DNA of 9,481 nucleotides from IMG/VR virus record IMGVR_UViG_2671180349_000010; one strand, written 5' to 3'. Below the pieces are notes generated by a model, which ran no database searches, had not been told where the DNA came from, and saw only the letters and a program-made list of their open reading frames with translations. Origin of the DNA: a virus (Duplodnaviria; Heunggongvirae; Uroviricota; Caudoviricetes). Positions 2,373 through 3,146 of the stretch are shown piece after piece (within the stretch, counting starts at the first letter, position 1; the number at the start of each line of letters is the position of its first letter). Both the position numbers and the translations under genes were made by a program.

Positions 2373-3146
2373 TTAATCCAGTTTTGCAATATTTTGCTGT
2401 AAAAATGCTGCCTTTTGTTTTGAACGTGTTCTCGTCACAAGCAATAAAGCATCACTATCAAGCTGTAGAAAAATGTGCTTCATTGCAACCCAGCGTTCAG
2501 TAAATGTCTCGGACCAGTTTTTTGTTGTCACTCCCACCAATGATGCCAGTGTCTGGTATTCATAGGCCTCACGCCCTGCAAGTTCGCTCTTCACATCCTG
2601 TGCAGCCAGCCAGATTAACGTCTTCAGGCGATCCAGTGTCTTACCTGCAATTTTTCTGTTACTTAACAAATCTTTAAACTCGCTCCATGCCCATTGCGTT
2701 ATGGTGACCTGATGCCCCCATCGAACGCTTTCGCTGTAACACCAAAGCAACCATGCTTTCTGATGTTCATCGAGAGACAAAATCGCGCGGCGCCATGAAG
2801 AGGTTGAGAATTCAACCGGGCTGACCAAAGCAATGGATGAACCTTTTGCGTACGACTGCTTACCGGAAGTCGGCGTATTATCCAGCGTAATCATCTTGCC
2901 AGTTACCACATCCAGAATGCGCGGCTTCTTTCGTTTGTATGTACCAGTATCAAATTGTGCATGCTCCTGCCAGGCTTCGAGCTGGCCTTTCGTTGCTCCG
3001 TTCAAGTCAGCAGTAGCTGCCATAAGTTGCTCACGAACATACTGTAAATATTGGGTATTCATGCAGTAAATCCTTTCTATATTTTGGCATAATTCTTCAA
3101 CATTCGGTAATCGTTCAAAACCGAATCGGGGAAACGACATAAGCAC
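2373..3146 (-). CDS. Hypothetical protein in the Q (late antiterminator) position; possible Q-like regulator, identity not established
   Basis: ORF 2373..3146 (257 aa from a GTG; the first ATG is at 3140..3138). An internal ATG at 3062..3060 is preceded by AAAGGA at good spacing and would give 229 aa. Same orientation as the nin genes and followed by a terminator-like hairpin, as Q is followed by tR' in lambdoid phages. No motif recognised by eye; the Q assignment is synteny-based only. Confidence 0.35.
   Translation of the reverse strand: MLMSFPRFGFERLPNVEELCQNIERIYCMNTQYLQYVREQLMAATADLNGATKGQLEAWQEHAQFDTGTYKRKKPRILDVVTGKMITLDNTPTSGKQSYAKGSSIALVSPVEFSTSSWRRAILSLDEHQKAWLLWCYSESVRWGHQVTITQWAWSEFKDLLSNRKIAGKTLDRLKTLIWLAAQDVKSELAGREAYEYQTLASLVGVTTKNWSETFTERWVAMKHIFLQLDSDALLLVTRTRSKQKAAFLQQNIAKLD

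Follow-up and report, generated by a model that had tools for sequence, protein, structure and literature searches.

A phage 82/434-type antiterminator gene Q with its own late promoter, pause element and terminator in a mosaic lambdoid prophage

Three mutually unrelated families of the antiterminator Q have been described in lambdoid phages, namely Q82 (PF06323), lambda Q (PF03589) and Q21 (PF06530) (PMC9388147). In all three, Q joins RNA polymerase by way of a DNA element while the enzyme is held in a sigma-dependent pause at the late promoter pR', and the polymerase becomes resistant to terminators (PMC9388147). The Q-modified complex ignores the terminator tR' as well as later terminators (PMC9388147, PMC12360218). 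For phage 82, stimulation by NusA and a contact with the beta-flap are known properties of Q (PMC4914094, PMC9388147). The protein binds its Q-binding element (QBE) probably as a dimer and contacts the beta-flap tip helix, with NusA helping when the nascent RNA is short (PMC4914094). The QBE has been placed between the -35 and -10 hexamers, and the segment of the 82 pR' from -31 to +30 contains a functional QBE and pause element (PMC4914094). Transcripts from the wild-type 82 pR' start with AAA, and the pause element is a close match to a -10 hexamer with an extended -10 motif (PMC5001585). It is followed by a three-base discriminator GCC at +15-17, a G at +24 and a U at +25, and the pause occurs at +25/+26, where region 2 of sigma, having re-bound the -10-like element, anchors a scrunched paused complex (PMC5001585). 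The GCC at +15-17 supports the 82 pause, which is weakened when GCC is mutated to A (PMC5001585).

In this work we describe a locus of the same kind in a stretch of 9,481 nucleotides, hereafter the window, from the IMG/VR virus record IMGVR_UViG_2671180349_000010. The gene at 2373..3062 on the minus strand encodes a protein of 229 residues (ATG at 3062, stop codon TAA at 2375..2373) that belongs unambiguously to the Q82-type family. Its sole match in Pfam is PF06323 (Phage_antiter_Q), with an E-value of 1.3e-91 and 306.6 bits against a cut-off of 25, and the alignment spans profile positions 1-216 of 220. In agreement, PHROG 304 (phrog_304, 'anti-termination protein Q-like') is matched at E=3.8e-108, and a tblastn search against phage genomes retrieved the Q of phage 434 (OL657226) with 99.6% identity and the 'phage 82 Q antiterminator' (X92588) with 88.2% identity, ungapped over the 229 aa. 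Database homologues amount to 2,639; PF06323 is present in all of the best 120 of these 2,639, and those of the best 120 that are named in their source are called antitermination protein Q or antiterminator. The original prediction considered the function of this gene uncertain, a doubt that is not sustained by the full-length match obtained in the HMMER comparison with the Pfam Q families and by the identities to the Q of phages 82 and 434. Neither does the prophage lack a late-gene activator, a possibility considered at that time in case the gene was not Q, since a Q82-family Q was found together with its own pR', pause element and tR'. Our best explanation, to which we assign a probability of roughly 93%, is that the gene encodes an intact and presumably functional late-gene antiterminator Q of the phage-82 family.

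The late promoter begins inside the gene itself. A promoter scan of the minus strand found a -35 hexamer TTGCAA at 2384..2389, within the last Q codons, and a -10 hexamer TATACT at 2361..2366, where homologues have TATATT at the same position; the two hexamers are separated by a spacer of 17 nt (2367..2383). The predicted transcription start is the AAA at 2352..2354, located 7 nt past the -10 hexamer, with A2354 as +1. The predicted sigma70-dependent pause element, an extended -10-like TGGTATATT recognised by its sequence, occupies 2341..2349 (+6..+14). The three nucleotides that follow it are GTA (+15-17), and the DNA past the pause element contains an A/T-rich stretch and then a G at +24 and a T at +25, so placed that, by homology with the 82 pR' (PMC5001585), the polymerase is predicted to pause at +25 and +26 (2329..2330; T2330). 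Therefore, a pR'/qut-like element, which the original prediction proposed to look for in 2204..2372, does exist, although it is not confined to that interval since it starts at 2389 in the last Q codons. The predicted promoter and pause element fit the published descriptions of the 82 pR'.

We aligned the 3' end of Q and the downstream DNA of the window with those of phage 434, PhiR47_2, PPompW, Enterobacter phage ENT1 and two Klebsiella phages. In this alignment both promoter hexamers are conserved, as are the start region and a TG-N-TAT pause element, and the sequences diverge after about +15. PhiR47_2, PPompW, ENT1 and KO-TP1 keep the promoter and the pause element and likewise have a leader terminator, and in other Q82-type phages the pause element appears as TGATATTTT or TGATAT. 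Phage 82 (X92588) has the same -35 TTGCAA, which does not vary among the Q82-type phages of E. coli, Klebsiella and Enterobacter; moreover, the 68 nt before the Q stop codon are 96% identical to those of phage 82 and identical across the -35. The numbering from +1 is validated by PhiR47_2, an 82-like phage whose Q is 86% identical, because taking its AAA as +1..+3 puts GCC at exactly +15-17, as PMC5001585 describes for 82. When promoter, AAA and pause element are taken as a single composite pattern, the window contains it once and 200 shuffled sequences do not contain it at all; the exact pattern is also present in the comparison loci L001 and L003-L005. Q82-type phages keep most of the spacer sequence (2383..2367), but this DNA also encodes the C-terminus of Q; by the placement in phage 82 (PMC4914094), the spacer is the putative position of the QBE.

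Two further observations were made in this region. The -10-like pause hexamer varies at its fourth base (position 2343), a polymorphism within a functional element: it reads TATATT in the window, TATGTT in phage 434 and E. coli Trh52, and TATTTT in 82-like phages. On the other strand, a perfect TTGC-N6-TTGC (TTGCAATATTTTGC) is found at 2384..2397 (+), antisense to the 3' end of Q and overlapping the -35 of pR', and in the phage 434 record this motif carries the annotation of a CII site and of the -35 of an antisense promoter, paQ. The loose CII consensus TTGYN6TTGY is not enriched in the window (3 occurrences versus 3.08 expected by chance), and no convincing -10 for paQ was found at the right distance from 2384..2397 (+). 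A CII box with paQ at this site is unproven.

The terminator-like hairpin that had been noticed after the gene is confirmed as an intrinsic terminator, tR', identified by a terminator scan at 2301..2327 on the minus strand. It is formed by a 9-bp stem (AAACCCGCU/AGUGGGUUU), a 4-nt loop and a T run; the stem (2327..2306) corresponds to +28..+49 and the T run extends to 2301 (+54). Folding of the predicted leader RNA yields the terminator hairpin with -16.3 kcal/mol (z = -3.2), and the phage 434 record annotates a terminator at the equivalent place. The stem starts only about 2 nt past the predicted pause site, a circumstance that we counted against our best explanation.

By analogy with the work on the Q of phage 82, we infer how Q binding, pausing and antitermination would take place in the window prophage. 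RNA polymerase holoenzyme containing sigma70 would start at pR', at about A2354, and sigma70 would re-bind the pause element at +6..+14, leading to a scrunched pause at about +25/+26. Q would bind its DNA site in the promoter spacer, contact the beta-flap tip of the paused polymerase with the help of NusA and become a stable subunit of the elongation complex. The Q-modified polymerase would then read through the terminator at +28..+54 (2327..2301) and through later ones, and readthrough would continue into the membrane-protein gene, tciB and nanS, and then into lysis and morphogenesis genes beyond the window. Without Q, pR' would yield only a leader RNA of about 53 nt. The prophage has, in its sequence, a complete late-gene switch of the phage 82/phage 434 type, and therefore the cargo between tR' and the lysis genes should lie inside the Q-controlled late transcript, which is the position of stx in Shiga-toxin phages. 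In this sense, the membrane-protein gene, tciB and nanS need not depend only on their own promoters.

Whether such a switch still drives a productive late operon is the point on which the only rival explanation with some weight rests. According to it, the sequences of Q and of its cis elements are undamaged, yet Q is a relic within a decaying, defective prophage. The prophage as a whole may indeed be decaying, because two downstream genes carry inactivating changes with respect to phage 434. In comparison with phage 434 and E. coli Trh52, the membrane-protein gene (1446..2203, minus strand) lacks one nucleotide at 1709, and this deletion splits a gene encoding 247 aa (CPT_434_68 in phage 434, WP_001302581) into ORFs of 172 and 80 aa; it represents either a frameshift pseudogene or a sequencing error. 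In nanS (DUF1737 plus SASA esterase; 352..903, minus strand) a stop codon at 352..354 shortens the product to 183 aa, while the intact gene encodes 616 aa in RefSeq; the stop results from a G-to-T change at 354, a position that is T in the window and G in phage 434 and Trh52. However, the two damaged genes belong to the accessory cargo and have no role in lysis or structure, and the promoter, the pause element and the terminator are intact. The remainder of the prophage lies beyond the window. Phage 434 is a classical viable lambdoid phage, and a single conservative residue separates its Q from that of the window. The locus also keeps the stump of an earlier lambda-type Q, which would speak of a history of rearrangement, but this stump, like the neighbouring lpxR, is present in phage 434 too. 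Taken together, a relic appears unlikely, and we favour a functional Q.

In the same part of the window we observed a second strong terminator at 998..1016 on the minus strand, upstream of nanS, with an 8-bp stem that includes 7 G-C pairs and a T run. The equivalent region of phage 434 (L001:4873-5077) gives a sub-threshold match to the sRNA STnc100 (RF02076; 41.4 bits versus a gathering score of 47), a family found above threshold in the Klebsiella phage KO-TP1.

The gene order of the window is ninG, ninI, lambda-Q stump, lpxR, ylcG, Q, terminator and cargo, which is the order of phage 434 and of RefSeq E. coli prophages; downstream, phage 434 and the RefSeq prophages have in common the order terminator, membrane protein, DUF3927 and SASA esterase. 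Thus, the gene does occupy the Q slot on the expected strand, where the nin region ends and upstream of the late operon, as the original prediction proposed, but it does not directly follow ninI (4707..5372; Metallophos in Pfam), since the stump, lpxR and a ylcG-like gene intervene. The stump is an ORF of 29 aa at 4621..4710 on the minus strand whose ATG overlaps the ninI stop codon. In tblastn, the peptide of its first 20 codons (4710..4651) matches the start of the annotated Q proteins of HK022, mEpX1/2, N7, HK140 and numerous others at 20 of 20 residues, and the segment is at least 99% identical in 115 phage records, whereas past codon 20 the ORF consists of unrelated sequence. Pfam does not recognise these 29 aa, which were identified by BLAST; the phage 434 record labels the ORF as an N-terminal fragment of lambda Q, and RefSeq labels it as an incomplete antitermination protein. 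There is no other intact Q gene in the window, the 20-codon stump being the only other Q sequence. The locus is a lambdoid mosaic in which a lambda-type Q is cut after codon 20 and is followed by a module of lpxR, ylcG, Q82 and pR'82.

The stump marks the recombination junction at which the lpxR-ylcG-Q82 module begins. The gene lpxR, encoding an outer-membrane lipid A deacylase (PF09982, E=6.8e-40), lies at 3536..4495 on the plus strand, opposite to the stump and ylcG/Q that flank it, and looks like a moron in the nin-Q region, one that phage 434 carries as well. Two non-coding differences between the window and phage 434 fall in this interval, an 8-nt insertion (ATTTTATT) at 4606..4613, downstream of the stump, and a 1-nt deletion at 3418, between lpxR and ylcG.

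Regarding the start codon, the ORF at 2373..3146 on the minus strand exists as first reported, counts 257 aa from GTG 3146 and contains GTG 3146, ATG 3140 and ATG 3062 in one frame. A good Shine-Dalgarno sequence (AAAGGA, 3076..3071), located 8 nt upstream of the ATG, precedes only the last of the three, and the phage 434 record has an annotated RBS at the corresponding site. This agrees with the earlier assessment of the possible starts, and ATG 3062 is the best of them. The gene is assigned to 2373..3062 because, counted in the long ORF, the PHROG 304 match starts at residue 29, the Met of codon 3062, and the PF06323 match at residue 32; because nearly all of the best 120 of the 2,639 homologues have a length of 229 aa; because the records of phage 82, phage 434 and RefSeq each annotate a CDS of 690 nt beginning with MNTQ; and because both upstream starts fall, in a different frame, inside a small ylcG-like gene (3077..3199, minus strand). 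The latter is an ORF of 40 aa that shares 72% identity with orf45/YlcG of phage 82 (BLAST); it has no match to a Pfam model, both RefSeq and the phage 434 record name it a YlcG family protein, and RefSeq places its start at the second Met, at about 3196. Translation from GTG 3146 or ATG 3140, to give a Q with an N-terminal extension of 26-28 residues, has in its favour that the frame is open back to 3146; with no Shine-Dalgarno sequence before either codon, and with profile matches, homologue lengths, annotated MNTQ starts and the ylcG homologue all speaking against it, we regard this extension as highly improbable. The true 5' end of the Q gene is 3062, not 3146.

The original prediction also named an alternative, in which the Q slot would merely be taken by a DNA-binding regulator of another family, similar to Roi or to an antirepressor. 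This idea has a negligible probability and is refuted by PF06323, PHROG 304, tblastn and the phage 82 alignment, since the sole Pfam and PHROG matches of the protein, full length and with E-values below 1e-90, are to the Q82 family, no unrelated family is matched, 88% of the residues are shared with the biochemically characterised Q of phage 82, and nothing in favour of the idea was found.

The earlier statement that this is not a lambda-type Q is correct. Pfam gives no match to PF03589 at E<=0.01, and the protein has a single Cys (C108), for which the Q of phage 82 has a Ser at the same position; a zinc finger like that of lambda Q is absent. No match was found to the phage 21 Q family (PF06530) in Pfam or to the Q21 chains in the PDB. 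A sequence search of the PDB returned chance matches only (E>0.08), so that no solved relative is detectable by sequence, and the NCBIfam search, which gave no match, is uninformative beside the decisive Pfam and PHROGs results. The AlphaFold2 model, built from a shallow alignment of 35 sequences with 72-89% identity, is poor (mean pLDDT 46.8, pTM 0.41) and gives no structural support.

The module formed by Q, pR' and tR' is widespread. It was found with at least 99% identity in 618 of 5,426 complete E. coli genomes, among them O157:H7 and O111:H8 strains, where the gene is annotated as 'bacteriophage antitermination protein Q'. The leader of this type occurs in over 600 of the complete E. coli genomes, O157:H7 among them. 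A trans-acting regulatory sRNA, StxS, is produced from the pR' of a Stx phage (PMC7547250). The leader RNA of the window, of about 53 nt (2354..~2302), might by analogy with StxS and with the Rfam family IsrJ be another such sRNA, because pR' is expected to be constitutive in the lysogen and to terminate at 2301; we offer this only as a tentative suggestion, and a rather doubtful one. A search of Rfam with the leader of the window (2297..2366, minus strand) gave only a sub-threshold match to STnc240 (RF02074; 29.3 bits versus a gathering score of 55, E=0.0075), and no family covers this leader, a 434-type variant, at threshold.

In other Q82-type prophages, IsrJ (RF01393) and IsrK (RF01394) map directly downstream of Q82-family genes (L008:1306-1379, L009:1306-1382, L004:1306-1385 and L006:1311-1387). 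The IsrJ consensus opens with the initial transcribed region of pR', -10-like element (uguAaauCUGAUAu) included, has a terminator at its end, and matches the leaders of ENT1 and KO-TP1 at 72.7 and 63 bits, respectively. It thus appears that IsrJ is the pR' leader of a Q82-type prophage, ended at the terminator. Both IsrJ and the leader of the window lie directly after a Q82-family gene; the leader of the window has no IsrJ match and is shorter, about 53 nt versus 75 nt for IsrJ.

When compared with the other known antiterminators, the Q of the window has the same role and genome position as lambda Q (PF03589) and phage 21 Q (PF06530), but no detectable sequence similarity to either of them, and it is devoid of zinc-finger cysteines. 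The structures of lambda Q and Q21 have been solved, and none was found for the Q82 family, whose member Q82 may not act as a closed nozzle (PMC9388147).

The relationship with phage 82 is much closer. The Q of phage 82 (X92588, UniProt P13870, REGQ_BP82), prototype of PF06323, differs from that of the window by 27 substitutions in an ungapped alignment of the full 229 residues (88% identity). Both genes end in the same 29 nt, in which the -35 TTGCAA is included. In both cases Q is preceded by ylcG/orf45, with a difference in the arrangement: the phage 82 order is rusA, ylcG and Q, with an overlap of ylcG and Q (ATGA), whereas in the window ylcG follows the lpxR insertion and ends 14 nt before Q. 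Past the Q stop codon, where X92588 ends, the comparison relies on PhiR47_2 and on published descriptions. The 82 leader shares with that of the window the initial AAA, the extended -10-like pause element, the G at +24 and the U at +25 (described in PMC5001585). From about +15 on, the leader and the terminator of the window are unrelated in sequence to those of the 82 type, as represented by the 82-like PhiR47_2. The discriminator at +15-17 is GTA in the window and GCC in phage 82, and for this reason the strength of the pause could differ from that of 82.

Phage 434 is the closest relative of the locus. Its Q (OL657226.1, CPT_434_67, annotated as 'Q82-like') shares 228 of 229 residues with that of the window, the exception being residue 94, an Ile in the window (I94) and a Val in phage 434 (V94). 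A literature search for a phage 434 genome paper returned nothing relevant, and the comparison is based on the genome record. The DNA of both is 99.65% identical over 6.07 kb, with the same flanking genes in the same order, namely ninG, ninI, lambda-Q stump, lpxR, ylcG, Q, terminator, membrane protein, TciB and SASA esterase. The differences comprise the frameshift at 1709, the nonsense change at 354, the 1-nt deletion at 3418, the 8-nt insertion at 4606..4613 and, within the pause hexamer, TATATT in the window for TATGTT in phage 434 (position 2343). This last change and the discriminator GTA are local differences that could modulate pausing. The gene is of an already known kind and can be correctly annotated as a phage-82/434-type Q with its own pR', pause element and tR'. 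The significance of this is a matter of correct annotation only, and the locus, as in phage 434, is a tidy example of lambdoid mosaicism.
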